From Escherichia phage vB_EcoM_VR26: 64,000 nt of DNA. Shown here piece by piece: positions 41,168 to 49,779 of this stretch (the first letter of the stretch is position 1; each line of letters begins with the position of its first letter). The stretch lies in sequence record NC_028957.1; one strand, 5' to 3'. A program made the translations under genes and the position numbers. Below the pieces are notes generated by a model. That model searched no databases and was not told the origin of the DNA. It saw nothing but the letters and a program-made list of their open reading frames with translations.

Positions 41168-42448
41168 ATGGCAAAGATTAACAAATTACTGCGCGAGTCA
41201 ACTACCACTACCAGCAACTCCTTGGGCCGCCCGAATCTTGTTGCTTTGACCCGTGCTACAACCAAATTGATTTACCGCGATATTATCGCTGAACAACGTA
41301 CTAACCAGCCAGTTGCTGCGCTGTACGGTGTTAAATATCTTACTCCTGATAATGAATTCAGTTTCCAGACTGGTGCTACTTATGGTGGTGAAGTTGGTTC
41401 TAAAGACCGTGAAACAATTCCGGAATTTACAACCCCAACTCAGGCCGTAGCTAAAGGTGGATACATTAAATTCCAGAATATCGTTTATAAAGCTCTGGTT
41501 GATAATCCATTTGCATCGACCACAGAAACAGTGTTATCTGATGTTCTGCAAGAAGGTCTTGTTGCATTAACTATTCGTTTAGTTCCTGATGCTGCACACA
41601 CCGAAAAATTTGAAGCTGGTGATGTTGAAATTAGTAACGCCGTGTTCCAGGTTAATAAATGGAATGCTCCTGTTAAATCCCGTAAATTGAAAACTGCATT
41701 AACTGTTGAGCTTGCTCAGGATATGGAAGCAAATGGCTTTAATGCTCCTGCATTCCTGGAAGACCTGCTTGCTACTATTATGGCAGATGAAATTAACAAA
41801 GATGTTCTTCAGTCTCTTATTACCGTTTCCAAGCGTTATAAAGTAACTGGCGTTTCTGACAATGGCACCATCGATTTAACATATGATGCAGCTCCAGAAG
41901 GTGCACGTAAACTGTACGAACTGGTTTGTGAAATGAACTCTGAAATTCAGAAAACTACATCTTACTCTGGTACATTCGTTGTTGCCTCAAGTCGTGTGGC
42001 TGCGATGCTCGCCGGTTCCGGTTGGTTGAAACATAAACCTGAAGATGAACAATGGCTCCCGGAAACCGCGTATGGTTATTTGATTAATGGTCTTCCTGTA
42101 TTCTGTGATGTTAACAGCCCATTGGATTATGTGACTGTTGGTGTTAAAGAGAATTATGGTGGTAACGAGGTCGTGGGCTCAATTTTCTATGCTCCTTATA
42201 CAGAAGGCCTGGACTTAGATGATGAAGAGCATGTAGGCGCGTTTAAGGTCATTGTGGACCCAGACAGCTTGCAGCCATCTATCTCCCTGATGGTTCGATA
42301 TGCACTTTCAGCTAACCCTTACACCGTTGCTAAAGACGACAAAGAAGCTCGTATTATCGATGCAACTAATATGGATTTAATGGCTGGCCAGAGCAACATG
42401 TCTTATCTGCTCGGTGTTAAACTTCCACCAATCATTTATGAGGCGTAA
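41168..42448 (+). CDS. 24: gp24 capsid vertex protein
   Basis: 426 aa; N-terminus MAKINKLLRESTTTTSNSLGRPNLVALTRATTKLIY close to T4 gp24. Confidence 0.9.
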   Translation: MAKINKLLRESTTTTSNSLGRPNLVALTRATTKLIYRDIIAEQRTNQPVAALYGVKYLTPDNEFSFQTGATYGGEVGSKDRETIPEFTTPTQAVAKGGYIKFQNIVYKALVDNPFASTTETVLSDVLQEGLVALTIRLVPDAAHTEKFEAGDVEISNAVFQVNKWNAPVKSRKLKTALTVELAQDMEANGFNAPAFLEDLLATIMADEINKDVLQSLITVSKRYKVTGVSDNGTIDLTYDAAPEGARKLYELVCEMNSEIQKTTSYSGTFVVASSRVAAMLAGSGWLKHKPEDEQWLPETAYGYLINGLPVFCDVNSPLDYVTVGVKENYGGNEVVGSIFYAPYTEGLDLDDEEHVGAFKVIVDPDSLQPSISLMVRYALSANPYTVAKDDKEARIIDATNMDLMAGQSNMSYLLGVKLPPIIYEA

Positions 42449-43732
42449 ATGCAAAAGATTAACGCACTAATTCACGAATCAACATTAACGGCGGCCAACC
42501 AGGTCGCCCGTCCTAATTTGCTTTCTTATACTCGAGCTACGAATAAACGAATTTTTAAAGCTCTCGTGGCCGAACAGAAAACTACTCAGCCAGTTGCAGC
42601 GCTGTATGGCGTTCGTGTTCTGAACCCAGATGATAAAATGACTTATCTTGGTGGAGCAACGTTTGCCGGTCAAATTGGTATGTTCGAGCGTAAGAATATT
42701 CCAGAATTTACGAACAAAGACGAAGCTTATGCAGTCGGCGATATGTTCCAGTTTGAAAGCATTGTATTCAAAGCTTTGGAAGCTTCTCCTTTTGCCGGGA
42801 CCCTCGAAACTGATTTGGGTGAAGTTATTTCTGAAGCCATTGCGGCTGGCCATATAAGAATGATGTCAGATGCGGCTTTCACTGATAAATTTGAACAAGG
42901 ACATCCTGAAATTGCTGAAGCCGGTTTCCGTATCGATAAATGGCAGACTGAAGTTAAATCCAGAAAACTGAAAACCTCTTTAACCGTTGAGCTTGCGCAA
43001 GACCTGGAAGCAAATGGTTTCGACGCAACAGATTTTATTGATAATATCCTTGGCATTCAAATGGCAGAGGAAATTAATAAGGACGTACTGCAATCTTTAA
43101 TTACCGTAAGTTCACGTTTTAAAGTCCAGGGTGTTTCCGAAAAAGGTGTACTTAATCTTACTGATGCCGCTTATGATAATGCTCAGGACCGTGCTCGAAC
43201 TCTGTATTATTATATGTGCGAAATGAATTCCGCAGTTCAACGTCAGACTTCGTTCGCTGGTACATATGCAGTCGCTTCTTCCCGTTGTGCAGCTATTTTA
43301 GCCGCTTCTGGCTGGGTTGAGAAAAAGGAAGACCAAGATGAATTGGCCTATGGTGTTCTGAAGAACGGTTTGCCACTTTATGCAGATATGAATAGCCCGT
43401 GCGATTATGTTATTGTTGGTGTAAATGCTGATATGGGTGAAGGCCAGACGGTCGCATCTTTGTATTATGCGCCTTATACGGAAGGTCTTAGTGAAGTTGA
43501 TGATGAGGGTGACACCTCGGTTGGGGAATTCAAGGTTATTGTTGACCCTGAAAGTTTACAGCCTACAGTTGCATTGTTAGCTCGTTATGCACTGACTGCG
43601 AACCCTTATACCGTTGCTAAAGACGATAAAGAAGCTCGCATTATTGATGGGGCTGATATGGATAAGATGGCTAACCAAAGTCAATTGAGTTCTTATCTTG
43701 GTGTTAAACTTCCACCACTGGAAAAAGAATAA
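42449..43732 (+). CDS. gp24 paralog, second vertex-protein homolog
   Basis: 427 aa; clearly homologous to the upstream gp24 (shared RPNL...TRAT, KSRKLKT.LTVELAQD.EANGF, ANPYTVAKDDKEARIID) but diverged. Confidence 0.85.
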   Translation: MQKINALIHESTLTAANQVARPNLLSYTRATNKRIFKALVAEQKTTQPVAALYGVRVLNPDDKMTYLGGATFAGQIGMFERKNIPEFTNKDEAYAVGDMFQFESIVFKALEASPFAGTLETDLGEVISEAIAAGHIRMMSDAAFTDKFEQGHPEIAEAGFRIDKWQTEVKSRKLKTSLTVELAQDLEANGFDATDFIDNILGIQMAEEINKDVLQSLITVSSRFKVQGVSEKGVLNLTDAAYDNAQDRARTLYYYMCEMNSAVQRQTSFAGTYAVASSRCAAILAASGWVEKKEDQDELAYGVLKNGLPLYADMNSPCDYVIVGVNADMGEGQTVASLYYAPYTEGLSEVDDEGDTSVGEFKVIVDPESLQPTVALLARYALTANPYTVAKDDKEARIIDGADMDKMANQSQLSSYLGVKLPPLEKE

Positions 43733-44886: not shown

Positions 44887-45150
44887 TCAGAATTTTACAT
44901 ACAGCATTGGTTTGTTATCTTGCCAGTCATAATTCCAGGTAAATGATGTAAATTTTTCTGCCCGCAGAAAATCAGATATCTTTGTGCGGTTTCCCTCTTC
45001 ATACTCTTTTTCAGAAACTGCCATATTAACAGCATCTTTGCCATTCTCAGCAGCGGCAATAGCCACTTTGCGAAATATAACAATAAAGTCATTTGCAACT
45101 TTATCTTGTGATTCTTTAGCCATTTGACGTAGTTCTTCTGCGAATGTCAT
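44887..45150 (-). CDS. hypothetical protein (24.2 position)
   Basis: 87-aa ORF with ATG start. Confidence 0.45.
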   Translation of the reverse strand: MTFAEELRQMAKESQDKVANDFIVIFRKVAIAAAENGKDAVNMAVSEKEYEEGNRTKISDFLRAEKFTSFTWNYDWQDNKPMLYVKF

Positions 45151-45350
45151 TTCTTCACCTTTTTGTTAAACAACCGCTTGCGGTATACGATTTTCTCTCG
45201 TGACTTGAACTTTTCTTTAGCTTGTTCAACATCAACCCATGCCTTTGCCATTTCTTTAGCGGTCCCGCCTAATACCTTGGCGATTTCAATAAATGTCATA
45301 CCAGTTTCATGCAGGAAATGTACTTTAACCTTATTCATAACCATTCTCAT
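45147..45350 (-). CDS. hypothetical small basic protein (24.3 position)
   Basis: 67-aa ORF, lysine-rich C-terminus. Confidence 0.4.
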   Translation of the reverse strand: MRMVMNKVKVHFLHETGMTFIEIAKVLGGTAKEMAKAWVDVEQAKEKFKSREKIVYRKRLFNKKVKK

Positions 45351-45487
45351 GTTGAGTTAGTGAAGCTATCTTAACATGGAATTTTTAACTTGTAAACAGG
45401 AGTTTTATGCCAGATATTCTTGAACGTAAAGATTTACTTTACAACCGTCACTACCTTAATAAATATTAAATTAATAACGGAGGATTT

Positions 45488-47014
45488 ATGACACAAACTA
45501 CAGGTGAAAAAGAAGGCGTATTTTACGGTTATTCTCTTTATGATTTGAATAAAGAAAAACTAATAACTTTTGATGAATTACTTACGGGTATTCAAGGAGA
45601 GCCCGGAGAAAATGGCGATATTGGACCAAAAGGCCCTATTGGTTTAACAGGTCCTCAAGGACCGAAAGGTGATATCGGGTCAAAAGGTATTAAAGGTGAT
45701 ACAGGTCCTCAAGGTATTCAAGGGCCCGCTGGCCCACAAGGTCCTCAGGGAGAAAAGGGAGTCCAAGGTTTAGCTGGAGTCCAAGGCATTCAAGGACCAG
45801 TCGGCCACCAAGGAGTGAAAGGTGATACCGGCCCTCAAGGTATTCAAGGACCGAAAGGTGATACAGGAGCACAAGGCCCACAAGGTGACAAAGGCGAAAT
45901 GGGTCCGGTGGGTCCGGCTGGTCTAACATGGAAAGGAACATGGGACGCTGATGTAGAGTATTCTATAAATGAGGCTGTCGGATATGGTGGTTCTTTATAT
46001 TTCGCCAAAACAAAAGTTCCTAATGGCGAAATACCAACACCGACTTCTAACTATTGGGGTGTTTTGGCTACCGAGGGTCCACAAGGTCCACAAGGTCAAC
46101 AAGGTCTTAAAGGTGATACCGGTCCTCAAGGTATTCAAGGACCTGTAGGGCCTGTAGGGCCGCAGGGTATTCAGGGACCAAGAGGACTTCAAGGGTCAGA
46201 AGGTGAAATAGGACCGCGGGGTATTCAAGGGCTAAAAGGCGAAACTGGGCCCGCTGGTCCACAGGGTATTCAAGGGCTAAAAGGCGAGGTGGGTGCTCAG
46301 GGTCCTTCTGGTTCTCCTGGACTTACAGGACCAGAAGGACCTCGTGGGTTAACAGGCGAAGCTGGAGCTCAAGGACCTCGTGGTGCTATAGGTCCTATCG
46401 GTTTAACAGGTCCTATCGGTTTAACGGGTCCTCAAGGTATTCAAGGTCCGAAAGGTGATACAGGTCCTCAAGGCTTACAAGGTCCTCAAGGCTTACGAGG
46501 TATTCAAGGAGCTCCTGGAGTAAAAGGAGAAGCGGGTGCACAAGGTCCGAAAGGTGATACAGGAGCACAAGGTCCTATTGGTTTAACTGGACCTAAAGGT
46601 GATACAGGCCCGAGCCCTTATACTGTTTATAATTATTCTAATGTTGCAACTGGTTATGCTGAAATGGTTATGCCTGGTGTGTCATCAAACACAGTATTTA
46701 GACTTCGTTCAGTTGGAACTAATATAGAATATAGTGTTCTAAGTAAAGGCGGAGCTAATAGATATGTAGATTGGCACTTTTCAATTCCAAGTGTTTCCGG
46801 CAATACAGTAAGTACTAATAGCGGAACTAATACATTAACTCCTACAGGTAATTTTACTATTGTGGCGACCGCTTATAATGGACTAAGGGGATTTACAATA
46901 ACATTATGCGAGTGGGGTTCAAGAGCTATTGTTGATATCACTGTTTATCATCATGGGCGTTCGGGAGACACAACCAAAGCTGTGGCTATTCGTATGACTA
47001 CTACAAAATACTAA
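45488..47014 (+). CDS. collagen-like triple-helix repeat protein with C-terminal globular domain
   Basis: Two Gly-X-Y runs (about residues 34-146 and 197-375) split by a 50-aa non-collagenous insert, then a 133-aa C-terminal domain; GGAGG SD. Confidence 0.8.
   Translation: MTQTTGEKEGVFYGYSLYDLNKEKLITFDELLTGIQGEPGENGDIGPKGPIGLTGPQGPKGDIGSKGIKGDTGPQGIQGPAGPQGPQGEKGVQGLAGVQGIQGPVGHQGVKGDTGPQGIQGPKGDTGAQGPQGDKGEMGPVGPAGLTWKGTWDADVEYSINEAVGYGGSLYFAKTKVPNGEIPTPTSNYWGVLATEGPQGPQGQQGLKGDTGPQGIQGPVGPVGPQGIQGPRGLQGSEGEIGPRGIQGLKGETGPAGPQGIQGLKGEVGAQGPSGSPGLTGPEGPRGLTGEAGAQGPRGAIGPIGLTGPIGLTGPQGIQGPKGDTGPQGLQGPQGLRGIQGAPGVKGEAGAQGPKGDTGAQGPIGLTGPKGDTGPSPYTVYNYSNVATGYAEMVMPGVSSNTVFRLRSVGTNIEYSVLSKGGANRYVDWHFSIPSVSGNTVSTNSGTNTLTPTGNFTIVATAYNGLRGFTITLCEWGSRAIVDITVYHHGRSGDTTKAVAIRMTTTKY
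45587..46612 (+). repeat. Gly-X-Y collagen-repeat coding region with recurring near-identical nucleotide blocks
   Basis: Recurring blocks such as AAAGGTGATACAGGTCCTCAAGGTATTCAAGG; interrupted at about 45926-46078. Confidence 0.7.
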
Positions 47015-47023
47015 GGAGCTTTA

Positions 47024-47887
47024 ATGGAACCGGTTAAAGCTGTGTTAGAGCCTGATGTAATAGATGTGGAATATGGTAATACATACTCGGCTACTGTAAC
47101 TCTGTCTCCTATAGAAAATATTCCAGATGGTTCCGTGATAAGATATGATTGGGTTGTTAATAACAAGTTCGTTGGTACGGGTGAAGCTACTCGTACCACC
47201 CAACCATCTCAGACCGGAAATTATGTATTATCATGTAGAGTATTCATTACTCCGCCTAATGAAAATACTGTAATGGTAACAACTAATAAATCATATGGGT
47301 ATGTATATAAAAATTCCGATACAAGTCCAGTAGATGCAGAAATATTATATGATAACAAGATATACCAAGTAGGAAGCAAAGTTAGATTATTAGCCGTTGC
47401 CAATAACCCAGATACCAACTTTGTTAAAGGTATTATATGGAAGGATGCTGATGGTAAGATAATAGGTATAGGTCGGGAATATATCCATACAATGCAATCA
47501 GAGTATGATATAGTTCGAGCTAAAGTTACAATGGATTCGCCTATAAGAGATGAATTTAGTAAGAACTTTACTATACATTTGTACGCTATAAATGTTCAAG
47601 AAGGAACATGTATAAGATATATTCATCCTTTAGACCACAGGGATGCAGGATTTATCTGGTGTGGTTGGTGGGTTATGGATGAAATCCAACGAGCGATAAA
47701 ACTTGGGCTGGATTGGAAAAATCCAAAAGAGCTAGATTTAAATTACAAGTGTGATTTAGAGACATTAGCGTTATTGCTCAAGACATATCCTGAAGCCGAA
47801 GTTCAAGAATCAAGACACGGATATATAATAACCAGACTACAAATTGAGACTGGCGGAATATATGAAAAACCATATGAAGTAAAATAA
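47024..47887 (+). CDS. Hoc-like protein, N-terminal beta-rich region plus Hoc-type C-terminal domain
   Basis: C-terminal YIHPL...FIWCGWWVMDEIQ...YPEAEVQESRHGYI is homologous to the Hoc C-terminus encoded on the opposite strand; starts 9 nt after the collagen-like ORF. Confidence 0.7.
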   Translation: MEPVKAVLEPDVIDVEYGNTYSATVTLSPIENIPDGSVIRYDWVVNNKFVGTGEATRTTQPSQTGNYVLSCRVFITPPNENTVMVTTNKSYGYVYKNSDTSPVDAEILYDNKIYQVGSKVRLLAVANNPDTNFVKGIIWKDADGKIIGIGREYIHTMQSEYDIVRAKVTMDSPIRDEFSKNFTIHLYAINVQEGTCIRYIHPLDHRDAGFIWCGWWVMDEIQRAIKLGLDWKNPKELDLNYKCDLETLALLLKTYPEAEVQESRHGYIITRLQIETGGIYEKPYEVK

Positions 47888-47910
47888 AAAGGGCCGCAAG
47901 GCCCTTTTAT
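47888..47910. terminator. bidirectional terminator between the Hoc-like gene and hoc
   Basis: GGGCC GCAA GGCCC flanked by A-run and T-run, so it reads as a terminator on both strands. Confidence 0.7.
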
Positions 47911-47912
47911 CA

Positions 47913-49016
47913 TTAATAGACGTAATCGTATATAATACCAGCTTCCAATGCCGAACGGTGGACGATACGACCGTTACGAGATTCCTGTACATCAACTTCC
48001 GGGTAATCACTAAGCATTTTGGCTAATACCGCCAGATGACAATAATATGGTGTATCCTCTTTAGTGGCTTTTTTCCAATCTGTACTTTCAGATGTTAATT
48101 TCTGAATAGCGTCCATAACCCACCAACCACACCAAATATACGCAGTATTACGGACAGGAAGTGGATGTACATAAATTAAAGGACATTCTTCTGGAACAAC
48201 AGGCTCTGCTTCTGTCACCGTAACAGACTTATTACCTGATTTAACTGAATTTGTAAAGCCTGTTTGTGATGCAGTAACTTCACAAGTATATGACTTCAAG
48301 CCTTCAGTGGATTCCGTTATTGCTCTTGTTGCTTCTGTTGAGTTGTCGTCCCATTTATATGCAAGAGTAGCGCCAGGAATAGCAGGGGACACAGAAGCTG
48401 TCAAATTGAATGGAACATCAACCGTTGCAGTAGACGGGCCTGAAATCTCAACAGTGAACTCAGGGAATGTATTGTTTTCGACCGTAACAACTACTGCATC
48501 AGGATTAATAACTTGGTTGTCATAATCTGCAGCAGAAATGGTAATTTGACAAGTTAAAGAAACCGGCCCTGCAACAGTAGCAGTACGAGTAATATCTTTA
48601 GTAATTTCACCAGTAGACCACAAATATGCTATTGTAGCTCCACCAGGTTCACCTGTTACATTAGCCGAAGCGTTATATTCCTCGCCAACTTTAACGGTTG
48701 GAGTGGAAGTTGTTAATGTTGCAGTTGCAGACATAGTCTTGTTATTAACTGTAATAGTTGTTTGAGCCTCTGCCGTTTCAGGCTCTCCTTCTTCCGGCGT
48801 TGTGGTGGCAACAACTTTAATTACTTTTGAACCTGCTGGGCCAGCTGCAATATAATCCATAGTAGCAATAACAGAAGCTTGTGGAACCTCATCAACGGTC
48901 CATACAAAAGATTCGGTACCAGCGACAGCGGCTCCAGCCCCAGTAGCAGTAAAATTAGTTGTTGCACCTATAACCGCTGTAGGTGTTAAAGGGGCAATTG
49001 ATACAGTATAAGCCAT
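47913..49016 (-). CDS. hoc: Hoc outer capsid decoration protein
   Basis: 367 aa; Thr/Ala-rich repeated domains with a G.Y..C.V motif; C-terminal WCGWWVMD capsid-binding-type domain; synteny. Confidence 0.8.
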   Translation of the reverse strand: MAYTVSIAPLTPTAVIGATTNFTATGAGAAVAGTESFVWTVDEVPQASVIATMDYIAAGPAGSKVIKVVATTTPEEGEPETAEAQTTITVNNKTMSATATLTTSTPTVKVGEEYNASANVTGEPGGATIAYLWSTGEITKDITRTATVAGPVSLTCQITISAADYDNQVINPDAVVVTVENNTFPEFTVEISGPSTATVDVPFNLTASVSPAIPGATLAYKWDDNSTEATRAITESTEGLKSYTCEVTASQTGFTNSVKSGNKSVTVTEAEPVVPEECPLIYVHPLPVRNTAYIWCGWWVMDAIQKLTSESTDWKKATKEDTPYYCHLAVLAKMLSDYPEVDVQESRNGRIVHRSALEAGIIYDYVY

Positions 49017-49025
49017 AAAACCTCC

Positions 49026-49046
49026 AAGGGCCGAAGCCCTTTTGTT
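49026..49046. other. hairpin between the inh stop and the hoc RBS
   Basis: GGGC CGAA GCCC; T-run on the forward side only. Confidence 0.3.
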
Positions 49047-49725
49047 AATTTAAACGAATAAAAGATGAGTTACGTGTTTCACGAATAAGAATGGAACCGT
49101 CACGATTGATATAGTAAATCAAACTAAACAATGTTTGGTGTGCGCTTGCATGAGTAAAAGAAGTAGGGCGTTCTTTCCAGTCTGGGGTCTCTTTAATCCA
49201 CTGGTAAATCCACCAAGGGAGAGTACAATATCCAGGAGCTTTGCCCAGCATAAGCAGATTGGGGCTAAAATTTTTAGGCAGTGTAAATTTAGGAGTTTCA
49301 GCTTCGATGATTTGAGCGACAGCTTCTTCAAAGTCTTCGGAAACAAACGGCACTTCAATTTCAACGAGTTTAACTTCTGATTCAGGGACAACTTCCTGGG
49401 TAACTTCGACTACTTCAACGGGTGCTTCTGGAGCATCAAACAAAAGAACAGCTTCAGGTTTAGCTGATTCTTCACCTTCAAACTTACTACCTGATAATTC
49501 ATCATCGGCATTAATAAGGTCGGTGATGCTTAAGCCTTCGTTATCGTCCGGCATAGGCATGTCAGCAAATGCTTTAAGTCCTGCTTCCAGGTCAATCAAC
49601 ATATTATCGAAAGTTTTTGTTTTCTTAACATCAACACCAAGCGATGATGCATATTCAGCTAATTTTTCTTTGGCTTCTTTTTTCTCGAGGATACGAATTT
49701 CCTCAATATAGTTCTTGTCAATCAT
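49045..49725 (-). CDS. inh: Inh-like protein (prohead protease inhibitor position)
   Basis: 226 aa, acidic; C-terminal region PGYCTLPWWIYQWIKETPDWK resembles the Hoc C-terminal domain. Confidence 0.6.
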   Translation of the reverse strand: MIDKNYIEEIRILEKKEAKEKLAEYASSLGVDVKKTKTFDNMLIDLEAGLKAFADMPMPDDNEGLSITDLINADDELSGSKFEGEESAKPEAVLLFDAPEAPVEVVEVTQEVVPESEVKLVEIEVPFVSEDFEEAVAQIIEAETPKFTLPKNFSPNLLMLGKAPGYCTLPWWIYQWIKETPDWKERPTSFTHASAHQTLFSLIYYINRDGSILIRETRNSSFIRLN

Positions 49726-49751: not shown

Positions 49752-49779
49752 TAGATATATTTATTACCTTGGAATCATC

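Follow-up and report, generated by a model that had tools for sequence, protein, structure and literature searches.

A collagen-like fibre gene paired with a short second Hoc gene in Escherichia phage vB_EcoM_VR26 and its relatives: a candidate surface module of T4-type heads

Introduction

Hoc is the textbook case of a head decoration that phages can do without, and underlies both the 'adherence to mucus' idea and the T4 display and vaccine platforms. In Escherichia phage vB_EcoM_VR26, two genes on the forward strand lie beside the canonical hoc gene, the first encoding a collagen-like protein (hereafter the fibre) and the second a short Hoc paralog (hereafter Hoc2). What does such a pair do next to a gene that already decorates the head? 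A preliminary description of the 64,000-nucleotide stretch analysed here (NC_028957.1; the window) proposed a second capsid-decoration module, in which the Hoc-like protein anchors to the capsid and the collagen-like protein forms a surface fibre.

As an arrangement the pair is not new, and the preliminary description overestimated its novelty. The two genes are already annotated in the GenBank records of VR7 (gp196/gp197), JS10 (0176/0177) and Aeromonas phage 65 (ST65p147/hoc-2), as well as in VR5, KIT01, CGG4-1 (gp212/gp211) and Kosakonia phage 305 (gp246/gp245), and VR25, the 99% identical sister of the window phage, carries them as gp248/gp247. These annotated cassettes resemble that of the window in having two genes in the same order and, in Tevenvirinae members, in occupying the same locus; their products are labelled 'tail fiber protein', 'Hoc-like head decoration' or 'second copy of the hoc gene'. 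Full-text searches of the open literature, which included the Petrov 2010 review of T4 genomes and excluded the VR7 and JS10 genome papers, returned no description of the pair, and we found no functional study of the orthologous cassettes in the open literature. New here are the linkage of fibre and Hoc2 across Straboviridae, and the homologues of the fibre in head modules of Drexlerviridae and Vequintavirinae.

Results

The pair lies between a 24.3-type gene and canonical hoc, both on the reverse strand, and a check of the open reading frames agreed with all coordinates and strands previously claimed (Table 1). Hoc2 starts 9 nt past the fibre stop codon, and the overlap of its ribosome-binding site with that codon suggests tight translational coupling. 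The junction TAAGGAG recurs in VR25 and CGG4-1 (TAAGGAC in VR5), and in Aeromonas and Erwinia phages the two reading frames overlap. Upstream, the motif AATAAATA ends 22 nt 5' of the fibre ATG; a late-promoter-like motif at −30 of the fibre gene is also kept in VR25, VR7 and VR5, and the AATAAATA variant is found again at 49758–49765 on the reverse strand, 32 nt 5' of the late inh-hoc unit. Three of the six AATAAATA sites in the window sit 22–32 nt ahead of a long open reading frame. The motif is a candidate late promoter of the pair, which would then be transcribed late. At the other end, the bidirectional terminator that the pair had been said to share with hoc was borne out by a symmetric hairpin (AAAAGGGCC-GCAA-GGCCCUUUU) between the stop codons of Hoc2 and hoc, with a U-run on both strands and folding energies of −15.3 kcal/mol on the forward strand and −13.9 on the reverse (z = −4.1 and −3.5); none of 200 shuffled sequences folded as well. 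An equivalent hairpin lies 3' of Hoc2 in VR25, VR7, VR5, KIT01, JS10, Kosakonia phage 305 and CGG4-1.

Table 1. Coordinates of the fibre–Hoc2 pair, its parts and its surroundings in the window
Feature	Position	Strand	Basis or remark
gp23 major capsid protein, bearing the Hoc docking segment	39170–40729	+	E = 1e-293 to T4 gp23
24.3-type gene, left neighbour of the fibre gene	45147–45350	−	Pfam DUF2774; annotated 24.3 in VR7
Candidate late promoter AATAAATA	45458–45465	+	1 mismatch to the T4 late consensus TATAAATA
Ribosome-binding site GGAGGA of the fibre gene	45479–45484	+	Sequence
Fibre gene	45488–47014	+	ORF; 508 aa, 50.8 kDa, pI 5.9
N-terminal cap module, aa 1–33 (MTQTTGEKEGVFYGYSLYDLNKEKLITFDELLT)	45488–45586	+	Conserved in relatives
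Collagen segment 1, 38 Gly-X-Y triplets, aa 34–147	45587–45928	+	
CBM5/12-like knob between the collagen segments, aa 148–196	45929–46075	+	Profile matches
Collagen segment 2, 60 Gly-X-Y triplets, aa 197–376	46076–46615	+	
C-terminal globular domain, 10-strand beta-sandwich, aa 377–508	46616–47011	+	
Ribosome-binding site AAGGAG of the Hoc2 gene	47013–47018	+	Sequence; overlaps the fibre stop codon
Hoc2 gene	47024–47887	+	ORF; 287 aa, 32.7 kDa, pI 5.2
Two tandem Ig-like beta-sandwich domains of Hoc2, about aa 1–97 and 98–192	47024–47599	+	AF2
Hoc capsid-binding domain of Hoc2, aa 193–287	47600–47884	+	Homology, predicted fold
Bidirectional intrinsic terminator hairpin, common to Hoc2 and hoc	47887–47908	both	
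Canonical hoc	47913–49016	−	ORF; 367 aa, pI 4.4

The C-terminus of Hoc2 had been described as homologous to the capsid-binding type of Hoc domain, a claim open to refutation by a profile search in which it failed to align with Hoc. Hoc2 aligned with PHROG 1149 ('Hoc-like head decoration', E = 1e-57) and phrog_21694 (E = 5e-18), with T4 Hoc in the PDB (phmmer E = 3e-26, 33% identity over residues 30–283) and, over its last 105 residues, with the canonical Hoc of the same phage (44% identity). The homology extends over the full length of Hoc. Its AlphaFold model (pLDDT 87.8) had as best PDB match in Foldseek 8t1x_X, the capsid-bound C-terminal domain of T4 Hoc (50% identity, TM 0.80), and the Ig-like part matched two-Ig receptors such as Fc-gamma receptors. 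The reference domain is T4 Hoc residues 281–376, in which Y293, H295, H299, R300, Y304, W306, W309, W310, D313, Q354, E355-S356-R357-N358-G359 and Y360 are listed as capsid contacts (Fokine et al. 2023, PMC10385173). Fourteen of these 16 are identical in Hoc2 (Y199, H201, H205, R206, W212, W215, W216, D219, Q261, E262, S263, R264, G266 and Y267), the exceptions being F210 for T4 Tyr304 and H265 for T4 Asn358. A His at the latter position recurs in Kosakonia phage 305 and in metagenomic relatives. By sequence and model alike, Hoc2 is thus a strongly supported, predicted capsid binder.

The site that such a binder would occupy is present: the segment of gp23 corresponding to T4 Gly326–Arg344 is identical at 18 of 19 positions, with Ser327 replaced by Ala and with Asp336 and Arg344 kept. 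The canonical hoc product consists of three Ig-like domains, as read from its alignment with T4 Hoc, followed by a capsid-binding domain, and the two proteins would compete for one capsid site. In Kosakonia phage 305, canonical hoc has decayed to a degenerate remnant and the fibre–Hoc2 pair is intact, a genome configuration suggesting that Hoc2 can serve alone as the Hoc. Hoc2 resembles T4 Hoc (PDB 5VF3, 8T1X; PMC10385173) in C-terminal fold, string of Ig-like domains, acidic pI and gp23 docking segment, but it contains only two Ig-like domains to the three of T4 Hoc and is a second copy, on the opposite strand and always behind a fibre gene. T4 has a single Hoc locus. A docking site in the first Ig domain was also considered for 'type B' Hoc2 proteins; the positions conserved there are those of the general Ig-fold signature, and their conservation was therefore not counted as evidence.

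The first gene of the pair encodes a collagen-like protein, as previously described: it matches Pfam Collagen (PF01391, E = 2e-47) and, over its full length, phrog_5073 (E = 2e-151), and contains 98 Gly-X-Y triplets in two uninterrupted runs, with proline mostly at the X position. An N-terminal cap, collagen, a CBM5/12-like knob, collagen and a beta-sandwich follow one another along the chain. The cap is 90–100% identical in VR7, VR5, VR25, ESCO10 and KIT01, and 49–54% identical in Kosakonia phage 305 and in fibres of Vequintavirinae; it is presumably the end by which the fibre attaches to the virion. Pfam and PHROG gave no match for the fibre N-terminus beyond its own family. By eye, the cap resembles a 'GHDGRGxFxG' N-terminus found across Straboviridae. 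The knob of the window sequence alone matches PF02839 at E = 0.037, under the curated (gathering) cut-off; the knobs of all 14 family members match this domain (best E = 3e-6), and a profile of the family picks up the chitin-binding domains of PDB chitinases (E = 6e-4 to 2e-3).

Within collagen segment 2 the DNA consists of tandem repeats of period 9/18/36, and the fibre of VR25 has six extra triplets there, leaving the window fibre 18 residues shorter. Collagen segment 1 has a GC content of 0.53 and a third-position GC of 0.25. Recent import of the collagen gene from bacteria was considered and rejected, because the third-position GC of the collagen segments (0.18–0.25, against an overall GC of 0.53) is like that of the rest of the phage; the high GC of the collagen segments therefore reflects glycine and proline codons rather than foreign origin. 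Collagen rises by about 0.29 nm per residue, and we infer that the fibre is a trimeric triple helix whose 98 triplets would span roughly 85 nm. The C-terminal domain is presumably its distal, ligand-binding end, and the fibre may bind glycans. This beta-sandwich has no close solved relative; homologues of the tip domain numbered one by word-index search and 18 by exhaustive HMMER search. C1q/TNF-like C-terminal domains occur in bacterial collagen-like proteins such as Bacillus BclA, and a tip of this kind was rejected here, as the fold searches returned no jelly-roll match to C1q/TNF structures.

The comparison of the locus across T4-like genomes, called for by the preliminary description, gave a uniform answer. 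In 17 of the 17 Straboviridae genomes inspected that carry an intact capped fibre gene (the window, VR25, VR7, VR5, KIT01, JS10, Esco_phi_B-01, dhabil, TH15, CGG4-1, Kosakonia 305, Cronus, FBB1, Phynn, Aeromonas 65, GomatiRiver_11 and AS4), this gene is followed directly, on the same strand, by a gene with a Hoc domain, the two genes overlapping by up to 11 nt or lying up to 127 nt apart. The pair is found between 24.3 and hoc in Tevenvirinae members, directly after gp24 in Cronus and FBB1, beside tk/pseT in Aeromonas 65 and beside a nicotinamide phosphoribosyltransferase gene in Phynn, and is kept despite strong divergence of both proteins (41% identity between the Hoc2 proteins of the window and VR7). 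Its distribution is patchy. The congeneric VR20 has 24.3 followed directly by hoc, with no cassette, and SP18 likewise has none; KIT01 carries a near-identical cassette (83% at the DNA level) though it belongs to a different genus, Dhakavirus; TH15 and the window phage belong to one genus and have different cassette types. Decay is also seen, as a 49-codon fibre fragment adjoining a 132-aa Hoc in PspYZU05 and a 78-codon fragment with no Hoc2 in AP1. A word-index search for fusions of collagen and Hoc domain, in which only 262 candidates were examined, returned 26 matches, all short and none with PF01391.

Homologues of the fibre also occur outside Straboviridae, and those of Drexlerviridae and Vequintavirinae lie in head modules. 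In the Drexlerviridae phage Bas01 the order is cement protein, GDSL 'head decoration', collagen protein and major capsid protein; in Vequintavirinae the homologues, which have a similar N-terminal cap and no Hoc gene nearby, are flanked by the genes for the major capsid protein and the neck; and in Certrevirus CB7 the collagen protein of the equivalent block was detected in virions by mass spectrometry together with its neighbours (PMC7344957). The homologue of podovirus PAS7 sits among lysis and tailspike genes, a placement that runs against a head location. The 'putative head outer capsid protein' of Bas01 was considered as an equivalent of Hoc2 and rejected, having no BLASTP similarity to it; it is a head decoration of GDSL-lipase type (phrog_9703, Pfam Lipase_GDSL_2). 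The capsid-binding domain of Hoc2 weakly matches the first 67 positions of the phrog_9703 profile (E = 0.0014), which fits the PG7-type architecture of Hoc domain plus GDSL (Fokine et al., PMC10385173). As a possible Hoc2 analogue in Vequintavirinae, the phrog_4998 protein encoded just 5' of the fibre matched nothing in Pfam and does not resemble an Ig-like protein in sequence.

Discussion

We propose, with a probability of about 0.5, that the pair is a late accessory module of the virion surface, whose fibre stands on the head, docked through or beside Hoc2. Of the decoration module put forward in the preliminary description, the Hoc2 half stood (homology, fold, contacts and gp23 site), whereas the collagen half draws indirect support from linkage, the head modules of other families and the late-promoter-like motif. 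Hoc2 would dock at the centre of gp23* hexamers after head expansion; since its site is that of canonical Hoc, heads would carry a mixture of both. The product of the first gene would form the trimeric fibre of about 85 nm, with its cap, CBM5/12-like knob at mid-length and exchangeable beta-sandwich tip, which is the layout of a phage adhesin whose N-terminus lies close to the virion and whose C-terminus binds a ligand. Display of this head fibre through or beside Hoc2 is the most likely arrangement, and glycan-binding fibres on the capsid could let the phage adhere reversibly to polysaccharides of the cell surface or of mucus ahead of tail engagement. In this reading the fibre would belong to the virion, be located on its head and touch Hoc2. 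More tentatively, and at less than even odds, Hoc2 may be a dedicated adaptor, with its capsid-binding domain on hexamer centres and its Ig-like part holding the fibre cap non-covalently. The fibre N-terminus is 98–100% identical between the window and VR7 and their Hoc2 proteins only 41%; a specific docking surface would therefore be confined to a small conserved part. Vequintavirinae fibres have the cap with no Hoc gene nearby, so the cap does not require Hoc2. A monomeric Hoc2 holding a trimeric fibre would also entail a symmetry mismatch, which speaks against the main reading.

The two genes could instead encode independent functions that travel together, Hoc2 being a second decoration and the collagen protein a tail, neck or whisker-type fibre placed elsewhere. 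RefSeq and PHROG do name the family 'tail fiber protein', but these labels derive from the collagen repeats and from the family itself, with no characterised tail protein behind them, and searches of Pfam and PHROG link the family to none of the known tail-attachment domains. Collagen-like proteins of E. coli prophages have been assigned to side tail fibres (PMC3368898) and the PAS7 homologue adjoins a tailspike, yet the Drexlerviridae and Vequintavirinae homologues are in head blocks and not in tail-fibre blocks. The cap exists in Vequintavirinae without any Hoc, and short second Hocs and other Hoc-domain proteins exist without a fibre gene in Metamorpho and, as far as their description goes (PMC10385173), in Muldoon and PG7; against this, adjacency in 17 of 17 genomes, across subfamilies and contexts and often with overlapping or coupled frames, is hard to square with hitch-hiking, and we consider separate functions less likely than the main reading.

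Still less probable is direct binding of the collagen trimer to the capsid, for example at threefold or quasi-threefold sites, with Hoc2 a co-evolving neighbour and not the anchor. A trimer suits threefold sites better than it suits a monomeric Hoc, SPP1 gp12 as described in a review (PMC7602432) offers a precedent, and within the VR group the N-terminus of the fibre has diverged far less than Hoc2 has, as would be expected of a partner of the highly conserved gp23. However, Vequintavirinae share the cap, and none of their head genes in the regions examined is annotated as gp23-like or Hoc-like; direct binding also leaves the constant Hoc-domain gene behind the fibre unexplained. A further reading, in which the cassette is a mobile moron that contributes nothing to virion structure and its collagen protein acts outside the virion, for instance at the host surface or in superinfection exclusion, would account for its absence from VR20 and SP18 within the genus, for the near-identical cassette of KIT01 across genera and for the differing types of TH15 and the window phage. 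We judge this very improbable: the upstream motif is late-promoter-like and not early, the cassette is located between head genes, its partner gene by sequence and model encodes a bona fide capsid-binding protein, its third-position GC agrees with that of the phage, and related collagen proteins are virion components in CB7 (PMC7344957).

Each half of the proposed surface module has precedents. Second short Hocs are known from Serratia phage Muldoon (314 aa, two Ig-like domains) and Enterobacter phage PG7 (PMC10385173), which resemble the window phage in having a second Hoc-domain protein per genome, with two Ig-like domains and a capsid-binding domain. The idea that the Hoc domain functionalises the capsid surface, and the proposal that the Hoc C-domain is a general anchor for capsid display, are already found in Fokine et al. 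2023 (PMC10385173), where the word 'collagen' does not occur and a fibre partner goes unmentioned. For the fibre, a parallel on a phage head, as far as the review description allows comparison (PMC7602432), is SPP1 gp12, a collagen-like trimer that the review places at the quasi-sixfold (hexamer) position and for which a role in host adhesion has been proposed (Zairi et al. 2014, cited there). By that description gp12 binds the capsid by itself, whereas the candidate anchor here is a Hoc paralog, and the fibre is much larger than gp12 and has in addition a CBM-like knob and a globular tip. The E. coli prophage proteins EPclA-D (Ghosh et al. 2012, PMC3368898) likewise combine an N-terminal attachment domain, collagen and a C-terminal globular or trimerisation domain, and are exchanged between phages; they differ in carrying PfN/Pf2 domains as in lambda Stf, while the family described here has different termini and its genes lie among those of the head. 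Their assignment to side tail fibres counts against a head location. Functional analogy extends to the head fibres of phi29 (gp8.5; PMC7602432) and the capsid fibres of phage 7-7-1 (PMC12796354), dispensable fibres that aid initial host attachment; as far as those accounts describe them, they are unrelated proteins with neither collagen nor Hoc.

Nature supplies controls in VR20, which lacks the cassette, Kosakonia phage 305, which lacks canonical hoc, and TH15, which has the other cassette type. Should the fibre be located elsewhere, the locus holds an ordinary accessory fibre beside an ordinary Hoc paralog. If Hoc2 is the socket for a long collagen fibre, T4-type heads would carry a modular adhesion device, with effects on host finding, gut persistence, the pharmacokinetics of therapeutic phages and capsid engineering; several phages with the pair, CLB_P2, JS10 and the VR phages among them, serve as candidates or models for therapy. 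Were the adaptor reading true, numerous Straboviridae, ranging from coliphages to phages of Aeromonas and Erwinia, might switch between 'smooth' heads with Hoc and 'hairy' heads bearing exchangeable glycan-binding tips, which would amount to a modular second adsorption organelle on the capsid in the T4 family.

Organisation and expression of the cassette at the hoc locus

Two forward genes for proteins of 508 and 287 amino acids, 9 nt apart and ending on a bidirectional terminator common with hoc, had been proposed in the preliminary description, and the open reading frames and a hairpin with folding energies of −15.3 and −13.9 kcal/mol on the two strands (z about −4) confirm this layout. We call the collagen-like product the fibre and the short Hoc paralog Hoc2. 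An AAGGAG within the spacer overlaps the fibre stop codon, and to the left of the cassette lie a 24.3-type gene (DUF2774), 24.2, rnlB and a tandem pair of gp24 genes. The gp24 duplication is also annotated in VR7, VR20, JS10, Kosakonia 305, CGG4-1, Cronus and dhabil, and is uncorrelated with the cassette, as cassette-free VR20 has it too.

Features of the cassette and its surroundings in the window
Feature	Position	Strand	Remarks
gp24 paralog (head vertex protein)	41168-42448	+	426 aa
gp24 paralog (head vertex protein)	42449-43732	+	427 aa; abuts the first without a gap
Mini-ORF MPDILERKDLLYNRHYLNKY	45407-45469	+	20 codons, own AGGAG; overlaps the AATAAATA motif
Late-promoter-like motif AATAAATA	45458-45465		22 nt 5' of the fibre ATG
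Fibre gene	45488-47014	+	ORF, 508 aa
Hoc2 gene	47024-47887	+	ORF, 287 aa
Hairpin, GC-rich, 22 nt	47887-47908	both	Folding and U-runs in both directions
hoc	47913-49016	-	Convergent with Hoc2
inh	49045-49725	-	Beyond hoc
AATAAATA, second site	49758-49765	-	32 nt upstream of inh

The motif AATAAATA has one mismatch to the T4 late-promoter consensus and is kept upstream of the fibre gene in VR25, VR7 and VR5. No exact TATAAATA is present near inh or hoc on their strand, and the inh-hoc late unit appears to share the one-mismatch variant of the cassette. From the upstream motif, its conservation and its recurrence before inh-hoc, we infer that the fibre and Hoc2 genes form a single late transcription unit. 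The fibre genes of KIT01 and JS10 begin directly after a conserved upstream junction, AACTTGTAAACAGGA, so that VR-type phages carry ~81 additional nt between the two, possibly the scar of a recombination that introduced the promoter.

Every base of the region agrees with IMG/VR entry UViG_2706795394 (171,541 bp), and Escherichia phage vB_EcoM_VR25, of the genus Gaprivervirus, shares 99% identity with the window. The novelty of the pair had initially been put higher than we found: both genes are already annotated in VR25, VR7 and VR5 (the VR7 labels being 'collagen triple helix repeat domain protein' for gp196 and 'similar to T4 Hoc' for gp197), so the arrangement is not new to databases. VR20 and SP18, of the same genus, lack the cassette, with 24.3 followed directly by hoc. 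Fokine et al. 2023 (PMC10385173) report short second Hocs and propose the Hoc C-domain for use as a display anchor, with no mention of collagen, and full-text literature searches returned no description of the fibre-Hoc2 pair. The window adds one more case to an arrangement that was annotated before and that combines two known kinds of protein; what may be new is the conserved pairing of the module and the suggestion that Hoc2 could act as an adaptor.

Hoc2 as a putative capsid decoration

The homology to the Hoc capsid-binding domain claimed for the C-terminus of the 287-aa protein held in database comparisons. Residues 30-283 of Hoc2 aligned with T4 Hoc (E = 3e-26), and Hoc2 matched PHROG 1149 at E = 1e-57; its similarity to the phage's own Hoc was limited to the last ~105 residues (44% identity). 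Structure prediction, suggested earlier as a check for both proteins, gave a confident AlphaFold model of Hoc2 (15-sequence alignment, pLDDT 87.8) with two beta-sandwich domains followed by one alpha/beta domain, the N-terminal part matching two-Ig receptors. In the PDB, the model's top hit was the capsid-bound C-terminal domain of T4 Hoc (8t1x_X; 50% identity, TM 0.80). Among the T4 Hoc residues listed as touching gp23* (Fokine et al. 2023, PMC10385173), 14 of 16 are identical in Hoc2 (HMMER alignment), the changes being T4 Tyr304 to Phe and Asn358 to His, and the gp23 segment touched by Hoc (T4 Gly326-Arg344) differs here at one position, with Asp336 and Arg344 kept. Hoc2 conforms to the Hoc family in every respect that could be tested. 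Homology, model, contact residues and the retained gp23 site together indicate that Hoc2 is very probably a functional capsid-binding decoration, which would sit on hexamer centres and compete with canonical Hoc for one site per hexamer.

Kosakonia phage 305 retains canonical hoc as an untranslatable, unannotated remnant (locus L005, 6260-6625, minus strand), in which the end of an Ig domain is joined to a stretch closing with QLEAGTIYSYVY and a stop, with further stops upstream. Its Hoc2 (41% identical to that of the window) and fibre partner are intact; the decay of hoc beside an intact pair is consistent with Hoc2 sufficing as the only Hoc.

Anatomy of the fibre

The fibre comprises a 33-residue N-terminal cap, 38 uninterrupted Gly-X-Y triplets, a 49-residue knob, 60 more uninterrupted triplets and a 132-residue C-terminal domain. 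The knob appears to be of the CBM5/12 chitin-binding-domain type: alone, the window knob was sub-threshold against PF02839, with 14/14 family members matching, and the family profile matched chitin-binding domains of chitinases in the PDB. For the C-terminal domain a ten-strand beta-sandwich is predicted at high confidence (pLDDT 93). Fold searches with it returned no convincing solved relative and no match supporting a C1q/TNF or BclA-like identity, and among 1.84 billion cluster representatives its relatives number only 18.

Collagen rises by about 0.29 nm per residue, so the two segments together would reach a length of about 85 nm, similar to the size of the head. Repeat number is variable, with DNA tandem repeats of 9/18/36 nt: VR25 has six triplets more (526 aa against 508 aa), the 18-residue difference falling in segment 2 (window 46390-46510; VR25 locus L001, 2922-4502) inside period 18/36 repeats, which suggests that slippage or recombination tunes fibre length. 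The fibre gene shares the low third-position GC of the remaining genome, which rules out its recent import.

Pairing of fibre and Hoc2 across Straboviridae

For the comparison across T4-like genomes that had been advised, both cap kinds served as queries against a phage collection, and the resulting loci were inspected. An intact fibre gene was present in 17 Straboviridae genomes, and in each of them the next same-strand gene encodes a Hoc capsid-binding domain protein, at spacings from an 11-nt overlap to 127 nt. Carriers belong to Gaprivervirus, Dhakavirus, Kanagawavirus, Gelderlandvirus and Roskildevirus within Tevenvirinae, and include one Ishigurovirus (Emmerichvirinae) and unclassified Aeromonas and Pantoea phages. 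The surroundings of the pair vary: in some genomes it separates 24.3 from hoc; in Cronus and FBB1 it directly follows gp24; in Aeromonas phage 65 its neighbours are tk and pseT, and the annotation of its second gene reads 'hoc-2, second copy of the hoc gene'; in Phynn it adjoins a nicotinamide phosphoribosyltransferase gene. Such strong linkage across contexts argues that the two proteins cooperate, in a mode that linkage itself does not give. Both partners appear shortened in Pseudomonas phage PspYZU05 (L034, 4489-5153), where a stop cuts the fibre gene to 49 codons and the following 132-aa Hoc lacks most of its Ig part; AP1 has a 78-codon fibre fragment and no Hoc2.

There are two cassette types, A (the window's) and B, which differ in cap and, in step with it, in Hoc2 lineage. 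Gaprivervirus contains both, and Dhakavirus KIT01 has a near-identical type-A cassette, so the module moves as a unit. Escherichia virus TH15 (Gaprivervirus; L041, 3501-5696) carries a type-B, GHDGRG-capped cassette at the locus where the window has type A, a whole-cassette exchange within the genus.

Several loci vary the theme. Pantoea phage Phynn (L037, 3498-5070) has a collagen-less version of the module: gene 36, labelled 'capsid vertex protein', is really a Hoc-domain protein (…MGYWVIDEI…MESRNGY), and gene 37 upstream encodes the fibre cap and a globular tip, with no collagen repeats. In VR7 the fibre stops early, with a shorter, different C-terminus and a 127-nt gap to Hoc2 (L002, 4472-4600) against 9 nt in VR5; its tip domain may be frameshifted or truncated. 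Salmonella phage CGG4-1 (L031, 2323-8544) has three Hoc-domain genes, for proteins of 279 and 944 aa besides the 285-aa one of the cassette, and a fibre with two CBM5/12-like knobs. At the same locus, without a fibre gene, Klebsiella phage Metamorpho (L043, 2822-4723) encodes a forward 467-aa Hoc and then a 162-aa protein with an N-terminal Hoc capsid-binding domain and ~75 residues Ig-like by eye, another way of using the Hoc domain as an anchor. One search, too shallow to weigh, gave no support for a natural collagen-Hoc-domain fusion.

Fibre relatives in other phages

The fibre family (phrog_5073) is modular, with knob and collagen segments common and termini swapped. The window-type C-terminal domain recurs in Dhakavirus JS10, Vequintavirinae, Drexlerviridae and one Autographiviridae phage; the VR7 and CGG4-1 fibres have different C-termini. 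The cap follows phage type: 'GEKEGVFYGY' or 'GHDGRGxFxG' in T4-like phages and Vequintavirinae, DUF1737 repeats in Drexlerviridae, and a short, basic N-terminus in PAS7. In phage fibres the proximal end usually attaches and the distal, exchangeable end binds, a logic that this family fits, since its caps track phage type and its C-termini are swapped.

Homologs outside T4-like phages sit with head genes, except in podovirus PAS7 (between lysis genes and tailspike). The order in Bas01 (AugustePiccard) is portal, protease, cement protein, GDSL-type head decoration, collagen protein and major capsid protein, and in Vequintavirinae the fibre gene has the major capsid protein on one side and neck and sheath genes on the other. 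This head-proximal block of Vequintavirinae also holds further collagen proteins (1,093-1,263 aa) immediately following the major capsid protein (A5-4, L006 314-4105; CR8, L008 1662-5948), and CR8 has a 103-aa mini-collagen with a similar cap. In Certrevirus CB7, a collagen protein of the head block and small neighbours are reported in virions by mass spectrometry (PMC7344957); that protein is a homolog of the extra Vequintavirinae collagens.

Attachment of the fibre

The best-supported reading is a sharpened form of the preliminary one, in which Hoc2 would occupy the centres of capsid hexamers and the fibre, expressed with it, would be a virion-surface adhesin probably held on the head by Hoc2. 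The probable capsid binding by Hoc2 and the linkage of the two genes partly support the earlier proposal of a capsid-decoration module, in which the fibre would sit on the head. The fibre might instead bind the capsid directly, as is reported for the collagen-like SPP1 gp12 (PMC7602432). Against a fibre held by Hoc2 stand the similar cap in Vequintavirinae without any Hoc, the near-invariance of the cap among VR phages whose Hoc2 differs by ~60%, and the symmetry mismatch of a monomer-to-trimer junction. Attachment at the neck or tail is a further rival. Least likely is that the cassette is a non-structural moron.

For a fibre held on the head by Hoc2, the comparative pattern gives a sharp and cheap experimental test with natural controls.
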